DNA of 47,772 nucleotides, from IMG/VR virus record IMGVR_UViG_2698536610_000001; one strand, given 5' to 3'. The notes under the pieces were generated by a model that was given only the letters and a program-made list of their open reading frames with translations, searched no databases and had not been told where the DNA came from. The translations under genes and the position numbers were made by a program. Numbering within the stretch: the first letter of the stretch is position 1; each line of letters begins with the position of its first letter. The stretch is from a virus (taxonomy: Duplodnaviria > Heunggongvirae > Uroviricota > Caudoviricetes). Of this stretch, positions 4,810 to 15,125 are shown piece by piece.

Positions 4810-5121
4810 ATTGATAACAGAGGGCGTTGCAGCGGGGTTGTCACTTAAGCGTATGGTCAACCTGACAACCCGGTGTCCTCAACGGGGGAAGGAATAACCC
4901 CGCCATACTTACCGCCGCGCCATTTCGCGGATTGCCACAACCGGAAGCGCACGGTCGACGAAAATTTAACGACAGGCTATCTATGAACCAGCTACCTCGC
5001 CGTGCGCTTTCGCGTTATGGTCTGACTTTTCAGGGAAATATCCTTTCAGTAAACTGTCAGTGCTGGATGCTCACCCGTGTCCGGCACACGCACTCCACCT
5101 CACCCGTGGAGAACTCCTTTA

Positions 5122-5337
5122 TTACCAACCTGTAATCATTCTGGCAATGCTTAATGCTGCTGCTTTTTCCAGATTGGTGATATCCTGCTCCAGAGCGGAC
5201 AGATTTTCAGCCTGCTTAGCCCTGGCTTCATTGGCCCATTTCAGATCCTGCGCTGCATTAATTTTCTGGTGCATCCACTCATAAAGTTCATCATCGGTAT
5301 AGTCTGGCGCGATGATGACGGGTTCTCGTTTCTGCAT
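5122..5337 (-). CDS. ydfC: YdfC-like small protein (leftward early operon)
   Basis: 71-aa ORF with GAGGA SD; position between ydfB-like and dicF matches the Qin dicB operon; sequence consistent with remembered YdfC. Confidence 0.6.
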   Translation of the reverse strand: MQKREPVIIAPDYTDDELYEWMHQKINAAQDLKWANEARAKQAENLSALEQDITNLEKAAALSIARMITGW

Positions 5338-5366
5338 ACTGATTCCTCGCGGTGCTGTTTCGCTTA

Positions 5367-5495
5367 TCAGCCGTTAGATTTTGCCGAACTGGAAAGCGCC
5401 TGTTTAAATTCGTTGAAGCTGAGAGCTTCTTCGCCTTCGGCAAGACCTTCGAAGTATTCTTCGTAAGCCTTTTCCATGATTGTGTCGAAATCCAT
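5367..5495 (-). CDS. ydfB: YdfB-like 42-aa protein
   Basis: Hand-translated minus-strand ORF MDFDTIMEKAYEEYFEGLAEGEEALSFNEFKQALSSSAKSNG (below the track threshold); start is one base from the ydfA stop. Confidence 0.5.
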   Translation of the reverse strand: MDFDTIMEKAYEEYFEGLAEGEEALSFNEFKQALSSSAKSNG

Positions 5496-5496
5496 A

Positions 5497-5652
5497 TCAC
5501 TCACCTGAGTTTCTTTCCAGCCAGCGACGGGCACCATTTTCGGTTTTAAACGTTTTGCTTTTGGTATACGTCATCGCGGTGAACGTACCGTCCTGGTTGG
5601 GGAACACGCCACATACCAGAGATTCGCTGTTGCCAAGATCGATAGTATCCAT
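5497..5652 (-). CDS. ydfA: YdfA-like 51-aa protein
   Basis: Internal start MDTIDLGNSESLVCGVFPNQDGTFTAMTYTKSKTF… of the 69-aa track ORF; first gene downstream of the leftward promoter/operator region. Confidence 0.55.
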   Translation of the reverse strand: MDTIDLGNSESLVCGVFPNQDGTFTAMTYTKSKTFKTENGARRWLERNSGE

Positions 5653-5729
5653 GCTGACCTCATTTCCCCTTAACGCTGGGGTAGCGGAACTGTTTGCTGA
5701 GAACACCGTGCGGTGTGTTGATGCAAATA

Positions 5730-5758
5730 AGATTAGCTATGACTAACATATAGGTCAA
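5730..5758 (-). promoter_or_regulatory. Putative leftward early promoter (dicB-operon promoter analogue): -35 TTGACC, 17-bp spacer, -10 TAATCT
   Basis: Read on the minus strand; the spacer and -10 overlap the TTAGCTATGACTAA operator-like palindrome at 5733-5746. Confidence 0.45.
5733..5746. promoter_or_regulatory. Operator-like site TTAGCTATGACTAA (TTAG-N6-CTAA)
   Basis: Near-palindrome of the same TTAG…CTAA family that recurs four times around dicA. Confidence 0.5.
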
Positions 5759-5769
5759 GTGATTTTGTA

Positions 5770-5783
5770 TGTTATGGCTAACA
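5770..5783. promoter_or_regulatory. Operator-like half-palindrome TGTTATGGCTAACA
   Basis: Related to the other TTAG-N6-CTAA sites; between dicA stop and ydfA. Confidence 0.35.
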
Positions 5784-5818
5784 TAATTGATGTGGTAAAA
5801 GATAACTCATTGATGATG

Positions 5819-6226
5819 TTATCTTTTATTTGTCCGCTGACGGGCTTTTAGTAATTCTTCAAAGAGTTTATTGAAGTTTTTTACTCGAGCTCGCATTTCG
5901 GCGAGCTGGGTATCCTGTTCTGATTCTGGCAGTGCATTAAACAGCTCAAGGAGCTCTAGTTCTTTGGGGGATAAGGCAACTGGCTTCTCAACAGGTGGTG
6001 TTGGTTGCTTGTCTTCATCGCCAAATAGAATCCATGTTGGTGAGCATTGCAATACTTTGCTGAGGGCAAAAAGGTTCTTCCCTGTAGGTTCACTATCATC
6101 CCGTTCCCATTGTGATACAGACACATGGGAGATTTTCAGGGCTTTAGCAAGAGACCTTTGGGTGTGTTTGAGGTTTTTCCGACGATACCTAATGCGTTCG
6201 CCGATAGTTAAATTTTTTGTTTCCAT
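5819..6226 (-). CDS. dicA: DicA-type HTH (XRE family) repressor, CI-like immunity repressor
   Basis: 135-aa ORF METKNLTIGERIRYRRKNLKHTQRSLAKALKISHVSVSQWERDDSEPTGKNLF… matches remembered DicA; divergent from dicC; palindromic operators on both sides. Confidence 0.85.
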   Translation of the reverse strand: METKNLTIGERIRYRRKNLKHTQRSLAKALKISHVSVSQWERDDSEPTGKNLFALSKVLQCSPTWILFGDEDKQPTPPVEKPVALSPKELELLELFNALPESEQDTQLAEMRARVKNFNKLFEELLKARQRTNKR

Positions 6227-6228
6227 AG

Positions 6229-6242
6229 TTAGCTAATGCTAA
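6229..6242. promoter_or_regulatory. Operator-like palindrome TTAGCTAATGCTAA
   Basis: TTAG-N6-CTAA inverted repeat 3 bp beyond the dicA start codon, in the dicA-dicC intergenic region. Confidence 0.5.
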
Positions 6243-6248
6243 ATCGTA

Positions 6249-6277
6249 TTGACTATGTTTTTGTTAACATCTATTTT
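6249..6277 (+). promoter_or_regulatory. Putative rightward early promoter for dicC: -35 TTGACT, 17-bp spacer, -10 TATTTT
   Basis: Consensus -35 hexamer; the -10 region is overlapped by the 40-bp perfect palindrome. Confidence 0.45.
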
Positions 6278-6305
6278 GTTAGTCATGACTAACAAAATAG
6301 ATGTT
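6266..6305. promoter_or_regulatory. 40-bp perfect palindrome AACATCTATTTTGTTAGTCA|TGACTAACAAAATAGATGTT with core TTAGTCATGACTAA; putative main operator
   Basis: Read directly; the first 20 nt are the exact reverse complement of the second 20 nt; ends 4 bp before the dicC ATG. Confidence 0.6.
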
Positions 6306-6309
6306 TTAA

Positions 6310-6540
6310 ATGCTTAAAACTGACGCTCTTTTGTATTTCGGTTCAAAAACAAAACTTGCACAAGCAGCAGGTATTCGTTTGGCTTCGCTTTATAGCTGGA
6401 AAGGGGATTTAGTTCCCGAAGGTCGCGCGGTGCGTCTACAGGAGGCATCTGGCGGGGAGCTTCAGTATGATCCCAAAGTTTATGATGAATATCGTAAGAC
6501 GAAGCGGGCGGGGCGGTTGAACAATGAAAATCACTCCTGA
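6310..6540 (+). CDS. dicC: DicC-type Cro-like regulator
   Basis: 76-aa ORF MLKTDALLYFGSKTKLAQAAGIRLASLYSWKGDLVPEGRAVRLQEASGGELQYDPKVYDEYRK… matches remembered DicC; first gene of the rightward operon. Confidence 0.8.
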   Translation: MLKTDALLYFGSKTKLAQAAGIRLASLYSWKGDLVPEGRAVRLQEASGGELQYDPKVYDEYRKTKRAGRLNNENHS

Positions 6541-7045
6541 ACAGGCTCGTGAGGCTCTGGATGCCTGGATATGTCGACCAGGAATGACACAGGAGCAGGC
6601 GACGATATTAATCACTGAAGCATTTTGGTCTTTGAAAGAGCGCCCGAACATCGATGTTCAGCGTGTCACAGATGAAGGTGGCGCGGTTGATCAGCGAGCG
6701 CTTGGCGTTAATCGAGTGAAGATATTCGAACGCTGGAAGGCTATTGACACCAGGGATAAGCGTGAAAAGTTCACGGCGCTAGTGCCTGCAATTATGGAGG
6801 CTATCCGGATTAGTGATTTCAGGTTGTATCGTGAAATTAGTGACGGGAAAAGCATTACGTACATGATCGCCGGGTTAAACAAAGAATATGGCGATGTGGT
6901 GGAGTCCGGACTGCTTTTTGCTGATCCTGCCGTAGTGGATCGTGAAACTGACGAACTTATAGAAAAAGCAATTGCTTTCAAACTTGCGTATCGACAGCAA
7001 TACCAACAAAAAGCTGGATGGAATTATGAGCCTTCTTTTTGCTGA
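6524..7045 (+). CDS. Conserved phage early protein in the cII position (possibly YdaT-family)
   Basis: 173-aa ORF overlapping the dicC 3' end by 17 nt; family assignment is tentative and from memory. Confidence 0.45.
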   Translation: MKITPEQAREALDAWICRPGMTQEQATILITEAFWSLKERPNIDVQRVTDEGGAVDQRALGVNRVKIFERWKAIDTRDKREKFTALVPAIMEAIRISDFRLYREISDGKSITYMIAGLNKEYGDVVESGLLFADPAVVDRETDELIEKAIAFKLAYRQQYQQKAGWNYEPSFC

Positions 7046-7991
7046 ACGCCCACTGGTTATAAACACACAGCTTGCGATGAAGATTGGCTTAAATGAAGCC
7101 ATTGTGTTGCAGCAGTTGCATTACTGGTTGAGAGATACTAATTCCGGCATGGAATGTGATGGTGTTCGCTGGATTTACAACACAACGGAACAATGGCTGG
7201 AACAGTTCCCATTCTGGTCAGAGTCAACTTTAAAGCGCGCGTTTGCAAGTCTGAAAACGCTGGGGCTTTTGCGTTGTGAAAAGCTCAATAAATCAAAGCG
7301 CGATATGACCAATTTCTACACGATCAACTATGGGAGCGAGCTTTTAGATGGTGGCAAATTGAGCGAATCCATCGGTTCAAAATGCGCCGCTCCATCAGGT
7401 CAAAATGACACGATGGAAGAGGTCAAAATGAAACGCTCCATTGGTTCAAAACGACCCAATGTCATCGGGTCAAAATGGCCTGATGATCTTACAGAGAATA
7501 CAACAGAGATTACTACAGAGAATAAAAACACTTTTCGTCCGGAAGCTTCGCAACCGGACCCGCAGACGACTGAACAGGATTTTTTAACCCGGAACTCCGA
7601 CGCGGTTGTGTTTAGTGCGAAAAAACGCCAGTGGGGTAGCAGGGAGGATTTGGCGTGTGCGCAGTGGATCTGGGGGCGGATCGTGGGTCTCTACGAACAG
7701 GCAGCCAGTGATGATGGCGAGATCATGCGACCAAAAGAGCCTAACTGGACTGCCTGGGCCAATGACGTGCGCACAATGCGGATGCTGGATGGCAGAAGCC
7801 ACAGACAAATTTGCGAAATGTTTGGTCGGGTACAGCGAGATCCATTCTGGGTAAAAAACATCATGAGCCCGTCAAAGCTTCGTGAAAAATGGGATGAACT
7901 GGTCATCCGTCTGGGGCGTTCGTCTGTACAGCGTTGTGTGAATCATATTTCTGAACCGGATACAGAAATTCCGCCTGGTTTCAGGGGATAA
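7026..7991 (+). CDS. Replication initiator (O-like replisome organiser) with internal origin iterons
   Basis: Start at the internal ATG (MSLLFAERPLVIN…) overlapping the upstream stop; the protein carries IGSK repeats encoded by the iteron array; no separate P/DnaC-like loader follows. Confidence 0.6.
   Translation: MSLLFAERPLVINTQLAMKIGLNEAIVLQQLHYWLRDTNSGMECDGVRWIYNTTEQWLEQFPFWSESTLKRAFASLKTLGLLRCEKLNKSKRDMTNFYTINYGSELLDGGKLSESIGSKCAAPSGQNDTMEEVKMKRSIGSKRPNVIGSKWPDDLTENTTEITTENKNTFRPEASQPDPQTTEQDFLTRNSDAVVFSAKKRQWGSREDLACAQWIWGRIVGLYEQAASDDGEIMRPKEPNWTAWANDVRTMRMLDGRSHRQICEMFGRVQRDPFWVKNIMSPSKLREKWDELVIRLGRSSVQRCVNHISEPDTEIPPGFRG
7374..7478. repeat. Array of five iteron-like direct repeats (GGTYCAAAAYG), putative phage origin
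   Basis: Repeats at about 7374, 7398, 7421, 7443 and 7468, spaced 22-25 bp; followed by A+T-rich ACAGAGAWT repeats at 7490-7530; lies inside the initiator gene, as lambda ori lies inside O. Confidence 0.6.
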
Positions 7992-8031
7992 GTGTTGATT
8001 TCAGGTCATGAGGTAATTTTAAGGGGGACTT

Positions 8032-8463
8032 GTGGCAAAAGTTTTTACACAAGAAGAGCGGGAAAAAATTAAAGGGCAGGTGGTGGAACTCGTGCGCCAG
8101 AGCGGTCGTGAGACGCTACGGCAACTGGAAGCTAAAACAGGTGCGACAAGATATCTGATGAGCGTTCTTGCCAGAGAGCTGGTTGCCAGTGGCGATGTAT
8201 ACAACTCCGGCTACGGGTTATTCCCCTCTGAACAGGCGCGTAAGGACTGGCAAAACGCCCGCAAAAAACTCTCGAGGGCAAAGATGAAGAAAACAGCTGT
8301 GGTTGATCCGGACCTTATCTGGTCGTTACCTGATGGAGAAATACGCCGCTACGACAGTCGCCTAAACATAATCTGTCGCGAGTGCCGGAAGACTGAAGTT
8401 ATGCAGCGCATACTCGCATTCTATCAGGGAAATGCTCGATATCTATTGAAGCGACGAGATTAA
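8032..8463 (+). CDS. Hypothetical phage protein (possible DNA-binding protein), GTG start
   Basis: 143-aa basic ORF after the replication gene; start codon uncertain. Confidence 0.4.
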   Translation: MAKVFTQEEREKIKGQVVELVRQSGRETLRQLEAKTGATRYLMSVLARELVASGDVYNSGYGLFPSEQARKDWQNARKKLSRAKMKKTAVVDPDLIWSLPDGEIRRYDSRLNIICRECRKTEVMQRILAFYQGNARYLLKRRD

Positions 8464-8786
8464 AGAGCATTAGTTCAGATGTGAATTGACATTTTCGTGG
8501 CACAAGATTAGCGCTAGCGTGGTCGTTTGGTTTGTGCCAAGAGCGGATAATGCTGACATTCCTATGCACTAATTAACGCAGAGCAAGCCAGTTAGTTGGT
8601 TATGGAAGTAAGTTGTAGCCAGCAACTATCACCATCGGAGATATTTAGGGGGATGCACTCTAAGTTGTAGTTACTTTATAATGTCACTTTCAAAGCGGAA
8701 GCTTGTACAAAAGATGGATAAGCTTTTGTATAGTATGGGATTCAAGAATCACTAAAAGATGACAACAGTACTTACAGGATGTGGCT

Positions 8787-9026
8787 ATGATCCGAATTAT
8801 GATTAGAATATTTTCTTTGACATTCGTTGCTTGCGCTGGCTTTGCTGCATATCACTTCAATAGTGTGCCATTGATGTTCACTTCTGGTAGCTTTCTTGTA
8901 ACATTTTTAGGTACATTTATTGTTAATAAAAAAAGTTCAGGGCATACAATAATTCAAAAAAGCGGTAGCCATTCAAAAAATAATCAGACGGTCGTTTTTG
9001 GAAATAATGAAAACAAGCGAGGCTGA
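8787..9026 (+). CDS. Small membrane protein with two predicted TM helices (cassette gene A)
   Basis: ATG 8787 with AGGA upstream; hydrophobic stretches IFSLTFVACAGFAAY and FTSGSFLVTFLGTFIV; stop 2 nt before gene B; AT-rich. Confidence 0.5.
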   Translation: MIRIMIRIFSLTFVACAGFAAYHFNSVPLMFTSGSFLVTFLGTFIVNKKSSGHTIIQKSGSHSKNNQTVVFGNNENKRG

Positions 9027-9028
9027 TC

Positions 9029-9625
9029 ATGGTTGGTGTTACTCAAAGGTCAGGGAATTACTCACGTAATGTGCAGGTGGTTGTCGATTCTAACTCTGTT
9101 GATATTATAAAGTCTCCATCGATTTTTATGGATCTTGTTGGTATTTTAGTTGATTCGAATGTTATTGATCCTCGTACAAACAATGACTACGAGCCATATG
9201 ATATTGAGAATAAAATAGACTTCAATGATGTTATAAAACATAGAGAACGTATTGAAGGGTTCTATCTATATTCTTCGATGATAGATAAAGCGTATGAAAC
9301 ATTAAATGAAAGTATGCCTACTGCTAAGGAAACGGCACTGAAAAGCATCAATTCACGATATCTTGATTGTCAAGGAGATTTATTGCTTAAACATAGAGAA
9401 GCGTATAAGAGCTGCAAGGATGCTCAGGAACGGAATAATTTAAAGATTCAATTGGTAAGAGAGTTTGCAGATTGGATAATAGACAGTGTAATAGAGCACA
9501 TCATTAAGAAATGCTTAAATTCTCTTATGGCAATGAATTACACAAGCGAAGAAATCGAATGCCATGCTTCTTTTATCGTTTATCATGCATTCGTAGAGTG
9601 TAAGATTCTGGAAAAACCAATATGA
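9029..9625 (+). CDS. Hypothetical 198-aa protein (cassette gene B)
   Basis: Tightly coupled to A upstream and C downstream (ATGA overlap); no motif recognised. Confidence 0.55.
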   Translation: MVGVTQRSGNYSRNVQVVVDSNSVDIIKSPSIFMDLVGILVDSNVIDPRTNNDYEPYDIENKIDFNDVIKHRERIEGFYLYSSMIDKAYETLNESMPTAKETALKSINSRYLDCQGDLLLKHREAYKSCKDAQERNNLKIQLVREFADWIIDSVIEHIIKKCLNSLMAMNYTSEEIECHASFIVYHAFVECKILEKPI

Positions 9626-9858
9626 TTATCTCTGATGTAACAAAACCAAGCCAAACCTTGTATTACCTGGGGGCTCGGTTATTAGAATGCATGAGTTCAA
9701 ATGCTTATTCGTATGTTGATATTATAGACTTGTATAATGAATTCAAATCTAAAAATAACAACTCTTCATTCACGCAATATATTTACACTTTAAATTGGCT
9801 ATATTTATTAGGCCTGGTTGATGCTAACGAAAATGGAGATTTGATATTATGTTTTTGA
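9622..9858 (+). CDS. Hypothetical 78-aa protein (cassette gene C)
   Basis: Overlaps B by 4 nt and D by 10 nt; small, probably helical. Confidence 0.5.
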   Translation: MIISDVTKPSQTLYYLGARLLECMSSNAYSYVDIIDLYNEFKSKNNNSSFTQYIYTLNWLYLLGLVDANENGDLILCF

Positions 9859-11573
9859 AACGGCTAATAGTCAGTTCTTTCAGGCTTGGAGTGATTCGTG
9901 ATATCGAATTTCACATTGGCGTTAATTTGATTATTGACCGAAACACCTCCAGCAAAGAGCAAACTGGAAATGGTGTGGGAAAAACTACTGTATTAAGAGC
10001 TTTAGATTTTTGTTTTGGAGCAGAACAACTGAATTTTTATACCGATCCTGAATTCAAGAAAGAAAATTCGGTTATAAAAAATTATTTGATAGAGAACGAG
10101 ATTGAGTTTTGTTTAATTCTCACAAAAGATTTGAATAATAAAACTGCACCAGTAATAAAAATTAAGCGTAAAATTACATCTGAGACTAATAAAACGAAGG
10201 TTATAGCCTCAATAAATGAAGAGTCCTATACGAAGGCTAAAGATTTCAACGAGGCTTTAAAAAGAACATTATATCTTGATTCCGCGATAAAACCGACCAT
10301 ACGAGAGATTATGGGACGTGTTATTCGAAATACGCATGACAAGATGTCGAACGCATTAAAAACGATAAAAATGGGTTCTAATACACAATATGAAACGTTA
10401 AATCTGTTTATGTTTGGGTTCGGTAACTCACAGATTCTGGATGAAAAACAGTCAGTGACTAAAGCCTATAAACTGGCGAAATCCGATTATGAAGTAATTA
10501 CTCGCCATCGCTCAAAGAATGCTTTGGAACAAGCTATTGCAATTATAAATAGAGATATTATAGCACAAGAAGAGTTAATTTCTAATTTTCAAGTGGCAGA
10601 CTCTTATAATGATATGCTTGCTGAGTTAAATGAGTTAAAAATTAAAATTAGTGAAGTTTCTATCATACTATCATCTTTGGAGTTTAAGCAAAAATTAAAC
10701 GATAAGGCTATACTAGATCTGGAAAAAAGTCATGAAAATATAAATACACTAGATCTACAGAAGTTGTACTTAGAAGCAACTGATCGGTTAGGTAACTTAA
10801 ACAAAGAGTTTACTGAGCTACTTTCGTTTCATAATAAAATGCTTGTAAAAAAAGCTGAGTTTATTAGAAAACAAATGCAGCCAGTGCTGCAAGAAATTTC
10901 CAAATATAAAGATGAACTAAATAACTTATTGACTCAAGAATCAGAGCTTTTAAAGAGTTTGTCTTCGCATGGGACATTGGCAGACCTGCAAATAATGCAA
11001 AAAAAATTAAATTCATTATTTGAAGAAAAAGGTGGGCTTGAAGCTGGACTACTTCAAATCCAAGAGATGGAGAACAACTTTAATATACTGAAAGCAAAGT
11101 TTAATGATGTGTCAGATAGATTAAAATCTAAACTTGACGATTTTAACAAACGTCTTGCGCTATTCAATTCCTATTTTTCTTTATATACTAAAAAATTATA
11201 TCAGGATGAATATATTCTTTCCTATAAAGATTCCTCCGGTTCTTTCGTTTTTACCATTGAACCTTTAGGAACTTTGCTCACATCAGGTAATCAGGGAGAA
11301 GGAAAAAAGAAAGCCCAGGTTGCCTCTTTAGATTTTGCCTATTTATCTGTCCAGGAGTCTTTAGAAGCCAGAACACCACGTTTTATAGCTCATGATGGAA
11401 TTGAGGCAATTCATGTAAATCAAATAAATAAGTTATTCGAGATAGCTTCGGGGATTAATGGTCAATATATATTGGCTATTCTTAAAGACAAGTTGGAGAA
11501 TATTGATCAAGACTTCATCAATAATAGTGTTGTGCTTGAGCTTGGGGAGGACGATAAGTTTTTTAGGCTTTAA
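9849..11573 (+). CDS. ABC-type P-loop ATPase with long central coiled coil (SMC/Rad50-like architecture) (cassette gene D)
   Basis: Walker A GNGVGKTT at aa 40-47 (nt 9966-9989); heptad-rich helical region roughly aa 220-440; C-terminal signature-like TSGNQGEG, Walker-B-like RFIAHD and a following His. Confidence 0.7.
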   Translation: MFLKRLIVSSFRLGVIRDIEFHIGVNLIIDRNTSSKEQTGNGVGKTTVLRALDFCFGAEQLNFYTDPEFKKENSVIKNYLIENEIEFCLILTKDLNNKTAPVIKIKRKITSETNKTKVIASINEESYTKAKDFNEALKRTLYLDSAIKPTIREIMGRVIRNTHDKMSNALKTIKMGSNTQYETLNLFMFGFGNSQILDEKQSVTKAYKLAKSDYEVITRHRSKNALEQAIAIINRDIIAQEELISNFQVADSYNDMLAELNELKIKISEVSIILSSLEFKQKLNDKAILDLEKSHENINTLDLQKLYLEATDRLGNLNKEFTELLSFHNKMLVKKAEFIRKQMQPVLQEISKYKDELNNLLTQESELLKSLSSHGTLADLQIMQKKLNSLFEEKGGLEAGLLQIQEMENNFNILKAKFNDVSDRLKSKLDDFNKRLALFNSYFSLYTKKLYQDEYILSYKDSSGSFVFTIEPLGTLLTSGNQGEGKKKAQVASLDFAYLSVQESLEARTPRFIAHDGIEAIHVNQINKLFEIASGINGQYILAILKDKLENIDQDFINNSVVLELGEDDKFFRL

Positions 11574-11859: not shown

Positions 11860-12018
11860 GGCTATCTGCCTCGGGCATGAATACCAACGGCAGATAGAGA
11901 AAAGCCCCAGTTAACATTACGCGTCCTGCAAGACGCTTAACATTAATCTGAGGCCAATTTCATGCTAGACACATGTAGGTTAGCCTCTTACGTGCCGAAA
12001 GGCAAGGAGAAGCAGGCT
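11860..12018. promoter_or_regulatory. hok/mok mRNA leader; expected location of antisense Sok RNA (not mapped)
   Basis: Inferred from hok/sok locus organisation; mok ORF begins at 11962. Confidence 0.35.
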
Positions 12019-12174
12019 ATGAAGCAGCAAAAGGCGATGTTAATCGCCCTGATCGTCATCTGTTTAACCGTCATAGTGACGGCACTGGTAACGAGGAAAG
12101 ACCTTTGCGAGGTACGAATCCGAACCGGCCAGACGGAGGTCGCTGTCTTCACAGCTTACGAACCTGAGGAGTAA
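12019..12174 (+). CDS. hok: Hok/Gef family type I toxin (mok in-frame extension from 11962)
   Basis: MKQQKAMLIALIVICLTVIVTALVTRKDLCEVRIRTGQTEVAVFTAYEPEE; the 70-aa upstream extension MLDTCRLASYVPKGKEKQA… resembles Mok; GGCGAGGGA-GAAA-TCCCTCGCC stem-loop at 12182-12203. Confidence 0.8.
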   Translation: MKQQKAMLIALIVICLTVIVTALVTRKDLCEVRIRTGQTEVAVFTAYEPEE

Positions 12175-12244
12175 GAGACCCGGCGAGGGAGAAATCCCTC
12201 GCCACCTCTGATGTGGCAGGCATCCTCAACGCACCCGCACTTAA

Positions 12245-12270
12245 CCCGCTTCGGCGGGTTTTTGTTTTTA
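12245..12270 (+). terminator. Rho-independent terminator after hok
   Basis: CCCGC-TTCG-GCGGG hairpin followed by TTTTTGTTTTT. Confidence 0.65.
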
Positions 12271-12390
12271 TTTTCAACGCGTTTGAAGTTCTGGACGGTG
12301 CCGGAATAGAATCAAAAATACTTAAGTAGCGCGCAGGGAGAAGAGGGATGGTCCCTTAAAGGGGAGAGCTAATTATCCGGAAGGATTCTG

Positions 12391-12654
12391 ATGATGAACA
12401 TGATGATGAACATCGAAGAACTGCGTAAAAATTTTTGTGAAGATGGCCTCTATGCTGTGTGCGTTGAAAATGGAAATCTTGTTAGTCATTACCGCATTAT
12501 GTGTTTGCGAAAGAATGGGGCTGCGTTAATTAATTTTGTGGATGGTCGAGTGACAGACGGATTTATCTTGCGCGAAGGTGAGTTTGTCACTTCATTACAG
12601 GCACTGAAAGAGATCGGAATAAAAGCTGGCTTTTCTGCTTTTTCAGGAGAATAA
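12391..12654 (+). CDS. Hypothetical phage protein (87 aa)
   Basis: GGAAGGA Shine-Dalgarno; unusual MMNMMMN start; no motif recognised. Confidence 0.45.
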   Translation: MMNMMMNIEELRKNFCEDGLYAVCVENGNLVSHYRIMCLRKNGAALINFVDGRVTDGFILREGEFVTSLQALKEIGIKAGFSAFSGE

Positions 12655-12720
12655 ACTCATCTACAATCTTGCGCGGGGCTGAACTCCCGCTGAGTAACAC
12701 CGTGCCACCGGAGAAAACCG

Positions 12721-12999
12721 ATGGCACGCAACGCAAAATATTACAATTCTGATAATTCGCCCGTTCTTGCCTGCACGCACGGGCGGTATTCTCACGCATT
12801 CAAGTCTGAATGGTTCCAGCACCCTCCATGCACTGAAGAGCAGGCTGAATGGATAATTCAGTGTTACCGCAGGCGCGGATACGAGGTTAAGAAAGCCCTT
12901 AGTCTCGACTACCGTCACTGGATAATCTCAGTCAGATTGCCTTACTCCGAACGCCCACCGCGTCCGTCCCGTACATTCCAGCAACGCATCTGGAGGTAA
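12721..12999 (+). CDS. Hypothetical phage protein (92 aa)
   Basis: GGAGAAAA SD; stop is 1 nt before the DUF968 gene. Confidence 0.45.
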   Translation: MARNAKYYNSDNSPVLACTHGRYSHAFKSEWFQHPPCTEEQAEWIIQCYRRRGYEVKKALSLDYRHWIISVRLPYSERPPRPSRTFQQRIWR

Positions 13000-13000
13000 C

Positions 13001-14050
13001 GTGCGGGTATTACTTCGACCTGTTCTGGTACCGGAACTCGGGCTGGTGGTCGTTAAGCCGGGCCGTGAATCCATGCCGGTATTCCACAATACCCGGGTAC
13101 TGGTGGAGCCGGAACCGAAAAGCATGCGTAATCTGCCGTCCGGGGTCGTTCCTGCCGTTCGCCAGCCGCTGGTGGAAGACAAAACATTGCTGCCGTTTTT
13201 CAGTAATGCACGGGTAATTCGTACTGCTGGTGGTGCTGGTGCATTGTCTGACTGGCTGTTGCGCCATATTAAATCCTGCCAGTGGCCACACGGCGATTAT
13301 CATCACAGCGAAACCGTTATTCACCGTTATGGTACCGGCGCAATGGTGTTGTGCTGGCACTGCGACAACCAGCTGCGTGACCAGACATCCGAATCACTCG
13401 AGCAACTTGCTCATCAAAACCTGTCAGCATGGATGATTGACGTCATCGGTCACGCAATAAGCGGTACGCAGGAGCGTGAATTATCTCTGGCTGAATTATC
13501 CTGGTGGGCGGTCCGCAATCAGGTGGCGGACGCGCTACCGGAAGCGGTATTACGTCGCTCGCTGGGATTACCAGCGGAAAAAAACTGCTCGGTGTACCGC
13601 GAAAGCGACATCGTACCGGGAGAGCAGACCGCCACCAGCATATTGAAACAGCGCACAAAAAATCTTGCACCGTTGCCTCACGCCCACCAGCAACAAAACC
13701 CATCACAGGAAAAGACGGTGGTAAGCATCACCGTTGATCCAGAGTCTCCGGAATCTTTCATGAAGCTGCCTAAACGTCACCGGTGGGTTAAGGAGAAATA
13801 CACACGCTGGGTTAAGACACAGCCGTGTGCTTGCTGCGGTATGCCAGCCGACGATCCGCATCATCTGATTGGTCACGGGCAGGGCGGAATGGGAACCAAA
13901 GCACATGATCTCTTTGTTTTGCCTTTGTGCAGAAAGCATCACGACGAGTTGCATACGGATACCGTGGCATTTGAAGAGAAGTATGGCTCCCAACTGGAGC
14001 TGATTTTTCGATTTATCGATCGCGCGCTGGCAATTGGTGTGCTGGCCTAA
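13001..14050 (+). CDS. DUF968 family protein (YdfU-like) with C-terminal Cys/His cluster
   Basis: 349-aa ORF, same length as remembered Qin YdfU; C-terminal [18 protein letters not shown]…CRKHHDELH suggests an HNH/zinc-finger-like motif; GTG start assumed. Confidence 0.65.
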
Positions 14051-14067
14051 TTTTGTGGAGTAAGTTG

Positions 14068-14445
14068 ATGCGTGATATTCAGATGGTTCTTGAGCGTTGG
14101 GGGGCATGGGCGGCTAATAATCATGAAGATGTGACCTGGTCGTCCATTGCCGCCGGTTTTAAGGGATTAATTCCTTCAAAAGTAAGATCTCGTCCGCAAT
14201 GCTGTGACGATGACGCGATGATCATTTGTGAATGTATGGCTCGCCTGAAAAAAAACAACAGCGATTTACATGATTTATTGGTGGACTATTATGTCGGCGG
14301 CATGACTTTTATGGCGCTTGCACGTAAGCATGGGCGATCTGATTGTTGGGTTGGCAGGATGCTCCAGAAAGCTGAGGGCGTAGTGGAGGGCATGCTGATG
14401 GTGTTGGATCTCCGATTGGAGATGGATGCTGATTGTTCGAAATAA
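14068..14445 (+). CDS. Late-gene antiterminator Q (small QuuD/phage-82-type)
   Basis: [26 protein letters not shown]…; about 125 aa; followed by a strong intrinsic terminator (tR' analogue). Confidence 0.65.
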
Positions 14446-14543
14446 TTAAAGGAAAAGTTGCTGTCTGATTTTCATTAGTCTAACATTTTAAATGTTGGAA
14501 TCGCAACGTAGTTATTATCATATAACAGCTTGTTTCCTGATTT

Positions 14544-14572
14544 AGCCAGCCTCCCCAAAGGCTGGTTTTTTT
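14544..14572 (+). terminator. Intrinsic terminator, tR'-like, downstream of Q
   Basis: AGCCAGCCT-CCCCAA-AGGCTGG followed by TTTTTTT. Confidence 0.6.
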
Positions 14573-14600
14573 CTAATAAGTATCATTTCGGGTGGGGATT

Positions 14601-15125
14601 TTATTGTTTAACCCATAATAGTTCATTGACATTGAATCCCAACTTTTGAGCGGTACGCACATAGTCTGCTTTTACATTATCTGGAATAGTTTGGGTCCTT
14701 GCCAGAATCCATAGGTATTCTCTGTTCGGACCACTGACAAGAGCATACTTATACTCATCATCCAGTTTGATTACATTATAGCCACCATAGAAGGGGCCAA
14801 AAAACGAAACTTTCAACGCTGCAGTTTTAGTATCTCCAGTAAAGTATGCTTTACCTTCGCTCTCGCTCCATTTGTTTTTCGTTGGATCGTATCCACGGTT
14901 AAGTACGCGAATCCCTCCGTCGTTCCGTTTTTCATAAGTAGCGCTGACCTGTTCCAGACCACGTTCGAACCAGTTCTCGAGGCGAGCTATTTCATACCAT
15001 TTTCCGAGGTAGCGGTTGGCGTCAAAATTTGTAATCGGCTGCACACCTTTAGGTGGTGTCGGGGCCTTACATGCTATAAGAGTGAAAGAGAGTGCAATGC
15101 CAGTCAACACAGGCCATAACTTCAT
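14601..15125 (-). CDS. Bacterial lipocalin (Blc-like outer-membrane lipoprotein), prophage cargo
   Basis: 174-aa ORF; signal peptide with lipobox LIAC; lipocalin motifs …RYLGKWYEIARLENWFERGLE… and KVSFFGPFYGGYNVI match remembered Blc closely. Confidence 0.85.
   Translation of the reverse strand: MKLWPVLTGIALSFTLIACKAPTPPKGVQPITNFDANRYLGKWYEIARLENWFERGLEQVSATYEKRNDGGIRVLNRGYDPTKNKWSESEGKAYFTGDTKTAALKVSFFGPFYGGYNVIKLDDEYKYALVSGPNREYLWILARTQTIPDNVKADYVRTAQKLGFNVNELLWVKQ

Follow-up and report, generated by a model that had tools for sequence, protein, structure and literature searches.

Lamassu systems are among the most widespread families of bacterial immunity and occur, according to published estimates, in about 10-15% of genomes. 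[quoted passage not shown] Experiments have validated this superfamily and structures are solved; its mechanism was solved recently, for nuclease effectors only. In short Lamassu (LmuA-LmuC-LmuB; DdmABC of Vibrio cholerae, LmuACB of Salmonella), the effector/adaptor gene is followed by those for a middle component and an ABC ATPase, and the genes overlap. [quoted passage not shown] The cassette described here shares each of these features. A published survey (10.1101/2025.04.02.646746) lists LmuA proteins of the CTD10 type that have no known effector under ‘Lamassu_Hypothetical’, and describes a ‘Clade O’ of short Lamassu as having seemingly lost the effector. A sizeable Lamassu branch is now filed under one or the other heading.

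The nearest relatives of the cassette are Lamassu_HNH systems (PADLOC PDC-M68), consisting of an HNH-CTD10 fusion protein (PDC-M68A), MC6 and a DUF2326 ATPase (PDC-M68B). A second group of comparators, used here by their descriptions, signals through amyloid motifs: the Bab/Agp Abi system of E. coli (BASS11), the BASS1-10 Bell/NLR pairs and fungal HET-S/NWD2. In these pairs, the upstream gene encodes a small protein that is directed to the membrane and has a C-terminal motif of about 20 residues; the gene directly after it encodes a protein in which this motif is N-terminal. The motif is rich in G/N/Q and poor in P and L, many motif families occur on one conserved partner domain, and fused ‘all-in-one’ relatives occur; these traits recur in the loci analyzed below. 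A third group comprises the small transmembrane (TM) suicide effectors of CBASS, Pycsar and type III CRISPR (Cam1), which are regarded as killing or arresting the cell after an upstream signal has clustered them.

Layout and setting of the cassette

The window, i.e. the whole stretch of 47,772 nt of viral DNA analyzed, carries four coupled genes on the + strand between positions 8787 and 11573: ORF1 (8787-9026, 79 aa), ORF2 (9029-9625, 198 aa), ORF3 (9622-9858, 78 aa) and ORF4 (9849-11573, 574 aa). All four are intact. Our ORF calls agree with those of the initial annotation, as do the junctions, namely a 2-nt gap between ORF1 and ORF2 (TGAtcATG), a 4-nt overlap of ORF2 and ORF3 and a 10-nt overlap of ORF3 and ORF4. 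The AT-richness claimed for the cassette was borne out by calculation, with a G+C content of 0.332 against 0.467 (5000-8463) and 0.488 (11962-15000) in the flanks. The setting had also been read correctly: the cassette lies in a Qin-like lambdoid prophage between cro/replication genes and hokD/rem/rusA/Q, and the hok gene placed downstream is hokD at 12019-12174.

Occurrence of the cassette is sporadic (17 of 5,426 genomes). Related cassettes occupy P4 and P2 defence hotspots and have SIR2 or Agp-type genes as neighbours. A scan of viral contigs with the adaptor alignment returned 4 loci only, all of them close relatives or P4-like.

ATPase and family assignment

ORF4 encodes an SMC/Rad50-like ABC ATPase (short LmuB-like, DUF2326/YydD family). 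Its motifs sit at the positions claimed for them, all on the + strand: Walker A GNGVGKTT at 9966-9989 (aa 40-47), the signature-like TSGNQ at 11280-11294 (aa 478-482) and an atypical Walker B, RFIAHD (aa 511-516), followed by GIEAIH, at 11379-11414 (aa 511-522). Across 18 homologues, G40, N41, G44, K45, T46 and T47 of Walker A, N481, G485 and K487 of the signature region and F512, D516, E519 and H522 of the Walker B region are invariant. In the window, Gly follows the Asp of Walker B (FIAHD-G), and in relatives G, Q or S does; the survey gives hhhhD[Q/S/T/E] for short Lamassu (10.1101/2025.04.02.646746). The AF2 model of ORF4 (mean pLDDT 81) contains the head domains and, over residues 194-451, long helices corresponding to the central coiled coil proposed earlier. 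ORF4 has the LmuB arrangement of an N-terminal Walker A, a coiled-coil insertion and a C-terminal signature and Walker B, but, in contrast to short Lamassu, no zinc hook.

In profile searches, ORF4 matched Pfam DUF2326 (4e-14) and, in PADLOC, PDC-M68B (2.8e-41), with LmuB reaching only 6e-4. The best Foldseek match of the model was YydD of Bacillus subtilis (9a6c, E=4e-22, TM-score 0.57), which belongs to the same DUF2326/YydD family and is part of the YydD-YydB integrative model, where the partner (YydB) differs from those encoded here. LmuB chains followed at 7e-15 to 1e-11 (9uxh_F, 9hqu_A, 9hqx_B, 9ux7_A, 9nyg_B). Searching PDB sequences with ORF4, with ORF2 and with the ATPase profile yielded nothing but coiled-coil noise.

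The suspected likeness to ABC-3C systems holds, as three of the four proteins match curated ABC-3C Pfam families (CTD10, MC6 and DUF2326). The partner proteins, previously considered unrecognizable, are recognizable in two cases: ORF2 matches Pfam CTD10 and ORF3 Pfam MC6, each with a score that exceeds the gathering cut-off. RefSeq/PGAP annotation already names cassette proteins ABC-3C. Because of these Pfam matches, the RefSeq names and the structural matches to LmuB, the designation ‘undescribed defence system’ is unsupported at family level; the cassette belongs to the known Lamassu (ABC-3C) family. What appears to be new is its fourth gene, which encodes a motif-bearing small TM protein. 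No description of this gene and its motif link was found in the publications consulted; the available part of the supplementary tables of Rousset et al. contains no DUF2326 entry and none of the cassette accessions.

Adaptor and middle component

ORF2 is an LmuA-like adaptor. PF20275 (CTD10) covers its residues 36-195 with 42.1 bits (cut-off 28.1), so that the protein shows the CTD-ended effector subunit of ABC-3C/Lamassu. No detectable similarity links the CTD10 fold to the solved LmuA CTDs, and neither profiles nor the AF2 model (a helical domain, mean pLDDT 76.6) revealed recognizable catalytic or membrane-active features in it. Whereas relatives bear HNH or SMEK_N fused to CTD10 at this position, only about 35 residues precede CTD10 in ORF2, and these matched no family in Pfam, PADLOC or the other profile sets. 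This distinguishes the cassette from typical short Lamassu, and from PDC-M68 in particular: the M68A profile matches the HNH-CTD10 protein of locus L006 (6e-34) but not ORF2, and with ORF4 as the only matching protein (M68B) the cassette does not qualify as PDC-M68, despite the MC6 and CTD10 domains in common. The HNH domain of the sister clades matches CBASS HNH effectors. As the published survey already admits forms without an enzymatic N-domain, its absence marks a variant and does not affect membership in the family. Enzyme-less CTD10 adaptors form >130 clusters at 50% identity, and this clade is probably the Lamassu that, in the words of the literature, “seemingly lost the effector”.

Residues 1-22 of ORF2 are disordered in the model (pLDDT <50), though conserved: Q16 is invariant and Q6, G9, S12 and N14 reach >=90%. 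A single TM-CTD10 gene, split into ORF1 and ORF2 by a frameshift, was considered and rejected, since ORF2 homologues down to 32% identity are all 195-199 aa long. Also against it are the GAGG Shine-Dalgarno sequence of ORF2 itself, the in-frame stop at 9008-9010, the lack of a slippery site, and the persistence of ORF1 and ORF2 types as separate genes in distant lineages.

ORF3 matches PF20293 (MC6; E=1.6e-13, 50.8 bits, cut-off 27.2) and thus represents the small middle component (LmuC-like) of ABC-3C/Lamassu, which was found in all related loci.

Small membrane protein

ORF1, the proposed trans-acting membrane effector, has two TM helices, which correspond to hydrophobic segments spanning residues 1-22 and 27-46. 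Its juxtamembrane stretch is rich in Lys and its tail is cytoplasmic; an SD-like AGGA lies 7 nt upstream of the ORF1 start. It is a ‘hypothetical protein’ in PGAP (WP_001367360.1) and has no significant family in Pfam, PADLOC, NCBIfam or PHROGs, the only Pfam match being sub-threshold (Hol_Tox, E=0.014). The initial annotation had singled out the small membrane protein as the unusual part of the cassette. We concur: it is conserved over the Enterobacterales loci L001-L005 and L010-L013 and is linked to the adaptor by a common motif, which together form the second difference from short Lamassu. In enzyme-less loci, the CTD10 gene is adjoined by a gene for a small 1-2-TM protein in every case (17/17 loci examined, from about 12 lineages and several phyla), whereas HNH-CTD10 (PDC-M68) loci have no coupled TM gene.

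Shared motif

The tail of ORF1 carries the motif IIQKSGSHSKNNQTVVFGNN (8949-9008, + strand, aa 55-74), and the N-terminus of ORF2 carries VTQRSGNYSRNVQVVVDSNS (9038-9097, + strand, aa 4-23). Across loci, a Gly/Asn/Gln-rich motif of 15-25 residues on the cytoplasmic tail of the small TM protein matches the N-terminus of the adaptor. The motif varies between lineages, the L001 type being QNNYF/QNNYL, and matches within loci (permutation p<1e-5); of three prospective motif predictions, two gave a strong match. The aligned cores span 11-26 residues with 45-77% identity between the sides. N (3.6-fold), Q (2.9-fold), G (2.3-fold) and I (1.3-fold) are enriched, L is at 0.13-fold and P is absent; V (0.94-fold) and K (0.85-fold) are marginal with respect to the expected enrichment and depletion, respectively. 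Amyloid signalling motifs are described as having about 20-25 residues, a composition rich in Q/N/G/V/I and poor in K/P/L, and about 43-56% identity between the sides. The motif pairs agree with this in length, composition and identity, V and K being marginal, and the gene order is that of BASS/FASS and Bab/Agp, with a C-terminal motif on the effector and an N-terminal one on the protein of the adjacent gene.

Two differences from the amyloid pairs stand out. The motif partner is an adaptor serving an SMC-like sensor complex, where the amyloid pairs have an NLR or TGP protein, and ORF1 is an integral hairpin (of the 1-2-TM kind) without a family match, not a helical bundle of the Bell/HeLo membrane-targeting type. 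ORF1 would nevertheless be membrane-directed in function, as the Bell/HeLo effectors are. It also differs from the TM effectors of CBASS, Pycsar and Cam1, whose sensor domain binds second-messenger nucleotides, in having a peptide motif and no ligand-binding domain.

The two motif sequences have diverged in codons and nucleotides, and on this ground we rejected a recent duplication or gene conversion as the origin of the common motif; similarity persists at the protein level.

In locus L009, the motif lies between the two TM helices and not at the extreme C-terminus, and the adaptor motif matches an adjacent Agp-type pair, the sole and indirect link to the defined BASS families.

Proposed mechanism and alternatives

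It is established that the cassette belongs to the family, that the enzymatic domain is replaced, that the gene pair is conserved and that the motifs match within loci. Our preferred reading, to which we assign a probability of roughly 65%, is a four-gene short Lamassu in which the membrane effector ORF1 is recruited in trans to ORF2 through the motif. ORF4 would be the SMC/Rad50-like sensor and ORF3 its LmuC/MC6 component, while ORF2 would retain only the docking/oligomerization domain of LmuA, with a disordered Gly/Asn/Gln-rich N-terminus of about 22 residues where its sisters have HNH or SMEK; ORF1 would present the matching tail from the inner membrane. Going by the Lamassu structures, an ORF4 dimer and ORF3 would sequester ORF2 at rest, and sensing of phage DNA ends or replication intermediates would free ORF2 to oligomerize. 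The common motif suggests that clustered N-termini could then form a beta-structure that captures the ORF1 tails, possibly by amyloid-like templating. As with other small TM effectors, clustering of the ORF1 helices might breach or depolarize the membrane, resulting in abortive infection. The P4/P2 hotspots and the sporadic distribution lend contextual support to a putative anti-phage or anti-plasmid activity by abortive infection.

The motif could instead mediate stable beta-strand pairing, with ORF1 anchoring the complex to the inner membrane (e.g. watching incoming DNA) without being the killer itself; protection would be due to an ATPase that binds DNA ends or to an unlinked host factor. 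A stable heterodimer would be equally compatible with the common motif and with a tail that faces the cytoplasm, and the cassette has no enzymatic effector. We consider such a tether unlikely: a plain anchor gives no obvious need for a G/N/Q-rich motif alike on both partners, and small TM proteins of defence operons are generally seen as suicide effectors (PMC9122126). Moreover, the same CTD10 position holds true abortive-infection effectors in the sister clades (CBASS-like HNH, SMEK), so that a swap of effectors is the more economical explanation.

Mimicry of the motif would serve competition as well as recruitment. As an antitoxin-like brake or a decoy, the ORF1 tail might take up a binding site of the adaptor or of the ATPase/MC complex, toxicity residing in the oligomerized CTD10 protein; a small first gene with translational coupling recalls some toxin-antitoxin layouts. 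This is improbable given a CTD10 without recognizable catalytic or membrane-active features, which in the HNH/SMEK relatives is only a docking module and needs no brake.

The fold of ORF4 is common to SMC, Rad50 and RecN, and the complex might accordingly act in DNA repair, partition or maintenance of the prophage. We give little credence to such a role, as the best structural matches are YydD and LmuB, not housekeeping SMCs, the sister systems carry suicide nucleases, and the cassette is AT-rich and sporadic, with relatives in defence hotspots and beside SIR2 or Agp-type genes. A decaying, effector-less Lamassu with an incidental upstream ORF, as the lost effector domain reported for one short-Lamassu clade in the survey (10.1101/2025.04.02.646746) might suggest, is strongly disfavoured by four intact and tightly coupled genes, a gene pair conserved across phyla, motifs that co-vary between the partners with similarity kept at the protein level, and a cluster number unlike decay.

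If recruitment of ORF1 as the effector through the motif is correct, a mechanism becomes available for the branch and a fourth gene for detection tools to search, and Lamassu adaptors would recruit effectors in trans, making the family more modular than thought. Amyloid-like templating by the shared motif is a plausible hypothesis. Tentatively, and as a possibility rather than an expectation, we extend it to the enzyme-less CTD10 Lamassu as a whole (>130 clusters), the present E. coli prophage cassette among them: an SMC-like DNA sensor would signal to a separate 1-2-TM killer, release and oligomerization of the adaptor nucleating a fold that polymerizes the tails of this killer. In bacteria, amyloid-type signalling has to date been demonstrated for Bab/Agp alone; it would then be a wider coupling device in prokaryotic immunity and reach the SMC/ABC class beyond NLR and TGP sensors, and the Lamassu clade reported with a lost effector would be explained. 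Since the motif comprises only about 20 residues and is lineage-specific yet matched within pairs, swap and compensatory-mutation experiments are straightforward.

Upstream region

A TATAAT hexamer is present at 8677-8682 (+ strand) 5’ of the operon, as the initial annotation had stated. Evidence for its suggested role as the -10 element of the operon promoter is weak, the best -35 matching in only 3/6 positions and the site being absent from the promoter scan. The AT-rich stretch contains 19 promoter-like sites against 14.3 +/- 3.7 expected from shuffled sequences, which is not above chance. In E. coli KK05-19, an IS3 element is inserted in the intergenic region upstream of the operon.

Cassette layout and prophage setting

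The initial annotation had described an AT-rich operon of four coupled genes, and all four ORFs were recovered at its positions on the + strand: ORF1 (8787-9026, 79 aa), ORF2 (9029-9625, 198 aa), ORF3 (9622-9858, 78 aa) and ORF4 (9849-11573, 574 aa). ORF1 and ORF2 are separated by a 2-nt gap, ORF2 and ORF3 overlap by 4 nt, and ORF3 and ORF4 by 10 nt. The G+C content of the cassette is 33.2% versus 46.7% and 48.8% in the flanks. The protein features named there were found as well: ORF1, read as a two-TM protein, has two hydrophobic segments, and the ATPase ORF4 contains Walker A (aa 40-47), TSGNQ (aa 478-482), RFIAHD (aa 511-516) and a central coiled coil, seen as long helices over residues 194-451 of the AF2 model. 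The TATAAT hexamer proposed as promoter exists at 8677-8682, but its -35 region is poor and, in a promoter scan, promoter-like sites were not in excess.

E. coli 025542-1 (NZ_CP035832.1) matches the window at 100% identity; there, a Qin-like lambdoid prophage carries the cassette before hokD, and the gene order is cro, YdaT-like, DUF977, cassette, hokD, rem, ydfU, rusA and Q. Few E. coli genomes carry the full cassette (17 of 5,426 complete ones). The toxin gene hokD, with an upstream mok-like extension, lies at 11962-12174, ~390 nt past the ATPase stop codon, and the G+C content returns to ~0.49 exactly at the hokD boundary, so that the AT-rich insertion has its right edge there. In NZ_CP035832.1, PGAP set the start of the ORF3 homolog late, giving 55 aa (L090:10192-10359; window 9622-9858); homologues, a Pfam match at residues 7-77 and the annotation of E. 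coli KK05-19 indicate the 78-aa form starting at 9622. In KK05-19 and its duplicate record OZ392455, an IS3 element is inserted between the DUF977 gene and ORF1 (L095:1696-2858, corresponding approximately to window 8464-8786). Lying in the putative promoter region, it could silence or re-drive the operon.

Family assignment

Curated ABC-three-component families cover three of the four proteins: ORF2 matches Pfam CTD10 (42.1 bits, cut-off 28.1), ORF3 MC6 (50.8 bits, cut-off 27.2) and ORF4 DUF2326 (52.9 bits, cut-off 28.7), and PGAP already gives all three ABC-three-component names. ABC-3C is the Lamassu superfamily, consisting of the SMC-like ATPase LmuB, the middle component LmuC and LmuA with an N-terminal effector and a C-terminal docking domain (PMC10586767). 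For the ORF4 model (mean pLDDT 81), the nearest structure was B. subtilis YydD (9a6c, E=4e-22), followed at 7e-15 to 1e-11 by LmuB chains from four Lamassu complexes that were solved independently; these chains outrank all SMC, cohesin and Rad50 entries except one. ORF4 also matches the PADLOC candidate PDC-M68B (2.8e-41), whose partner PDC-M68A is the HNH-CTD10 protein of relatives. The CTD10 model had no significant similarity to solved LmuA C-terminal domains. Thus, the cassette family is already known, and we put the probability that the cassette belongs to Lamassu/ABC-3C at about 95%. The ABC-3C resemblance noted initially is borne out by Pfam, PGAP and the LmuB structures; the suggestion of an undescribed system is not, since Lamassu is known and validated.

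The YydD chain matched, 9a6c_A, comes from an integrative YydD-YydB model of B. subtilis; strain 168 therefore seems to encode, in its yyd operon, an ABC-3C/Lamassu-type system with the same ATPase family (DUF2326).

Short adaptors and their coupled TM genes

ORF2 has ~35 residues ahead of CTD10 and no enzymatic domain. It is not recently truncated, as its homologues all measure 195-199 aa down to 32% identity. Upstream genes were parsed in 80 loci collected around relatives of the ATPase and spanning many phyla. The majority encode an HNH-CTD10 protein (262-285 aa) and some a SMEK_N-CTD10 protein (~321-326 aa), both without a coupled upstream gene. A minority encode a short CTD10 protein (183-217 aa), and a small ORF abuts or overlaps the start of every such gene (gap -20 to +5 nt). 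The small protein combines 1-2 TM helices with a Lys-rich stretch and a polar tail; by the positive-inside rule, the tail is predicted to face the cytoplasm. These TM-type loci comprise the window, L001-L005 and L010-L013 in Enterobacterales, L018 and L048 (two Bacteroidetes MAGs), L024 (Myxococcus), L056 (Balneola), L061 (an alphaproteobacterial MAG) and L009. In a neighbour-joining ATPase tree without support values, they occupy three or more deep branches, which are basal to the clades with SMEK and HNH.

In several HNH-type loci, LmuA is truncated or frameshifted (L008:4397-4780, L047:3418-3783, L015:1082-1723, L034:322-963), either to CTD10 remnants of 121-127 aa or to 213-aa ORFs whose HNH sequence extends further upstream in the same or another frame; inactivation of the nuclease effector thus seems frequent. 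The HNH part fused to CTD10 (L006:3968-4774 and related loci) matches the PADLOC CBASS models 'Effector Endonuclease' and SAVED_HNH (E to 2e-24), so that CBASS and this Lamassu branch have one suicide nuclease module in common.

Shared motif and proposed mechanism

The ORF1 tail and the disordered ORF2 N-terminus share a short Gly/Asn/Gln-rich motif. Because such sequence is low in complexity, the controls included shuffles that preserve composition, cross-locus comparisons and negative-control ORFs; motif matches are weak in three loci. In Myxococcus (L024:3108-3761), the motif at the adaptor N-terminus forms a tandem pseudo-repeat (QGIRGDHNQQ/QSIRGDNNQQ), recalling the pseudo-repeats reported for HRAM and for certain BASS motifs.

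According to two reports on solved Lamassu complexes (10.1101/2025.03.14.643221, 10.1101/2025.04.02.646746), the LmuA C-terminal domain is an oligomerisation domain held by two LmuB protomers and LmuC, and DNA ends or phage replication free LmuA, which then forms tetramers. The present analysis establishes the parts and how they relate to one another, whereas we infer every dynamic step of the mechanism. By analogy with solved Lamassu, ORF2 would be freed and oligomerise, and several N-terminal motifs would thereby meet; amyloid motifs on NLRs are nucleated by just such induced proximity. ORF1, resident in the membrane, would then have its matching tails captured or templated by this assembly, and its helices, once clustered, would damage the membrane. 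ORF1 is likely the effector, coupled through the motif. That this coupling works by templating in an amyloid-like manner, and not by simple docking of beta-strands, is a tentative reading to which we give somewhat less than an even chance.

Relation to published surveys

The short-Lamassu effectors of Haudiquet et al. include HNH and SMEK, and their DefenseFinder tables hold a subtype 'Lamassu_Hypothetical' containing LmuA_CTD10; one short-Lamassu group, 'Clade O', is reported there as seemingly having lost its effector (10.1101/2025.04.02.646746). The TM-type CTD10 clade probably corresponds to such entries; if so, their effector is not lost but has moved to a separate gene outside current models. 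PADLOC models gave no match for the TM protein or the short adaptor. With its fourth gene and the motif common to ORF1 and ORF2, the cassette represents a new Lamassu form with a specific, testable mechanism. The founding ABC-3C paper may already mention TM partners.

Genomic context

P4/P2 sites, an AlpA-type island and SIR2 and Agp-type neighbours give supporting evidence for a defence role. All four genes lie between int and ogr/psu in two P4-like satellites (L002, L094), an interval defined as a hotspot (PMC9122126). The cassette adjoins P2-like gpA in L005 and an Agp-type pair in L009, and lies within an AlpA-type island of Pectobacterium in L001. On the metagenomic contig L096, a SIR2_2-domain gene (1093-2178) is located directly upstream of a TM-type cassette, a neighbourhood of the defence-island type.
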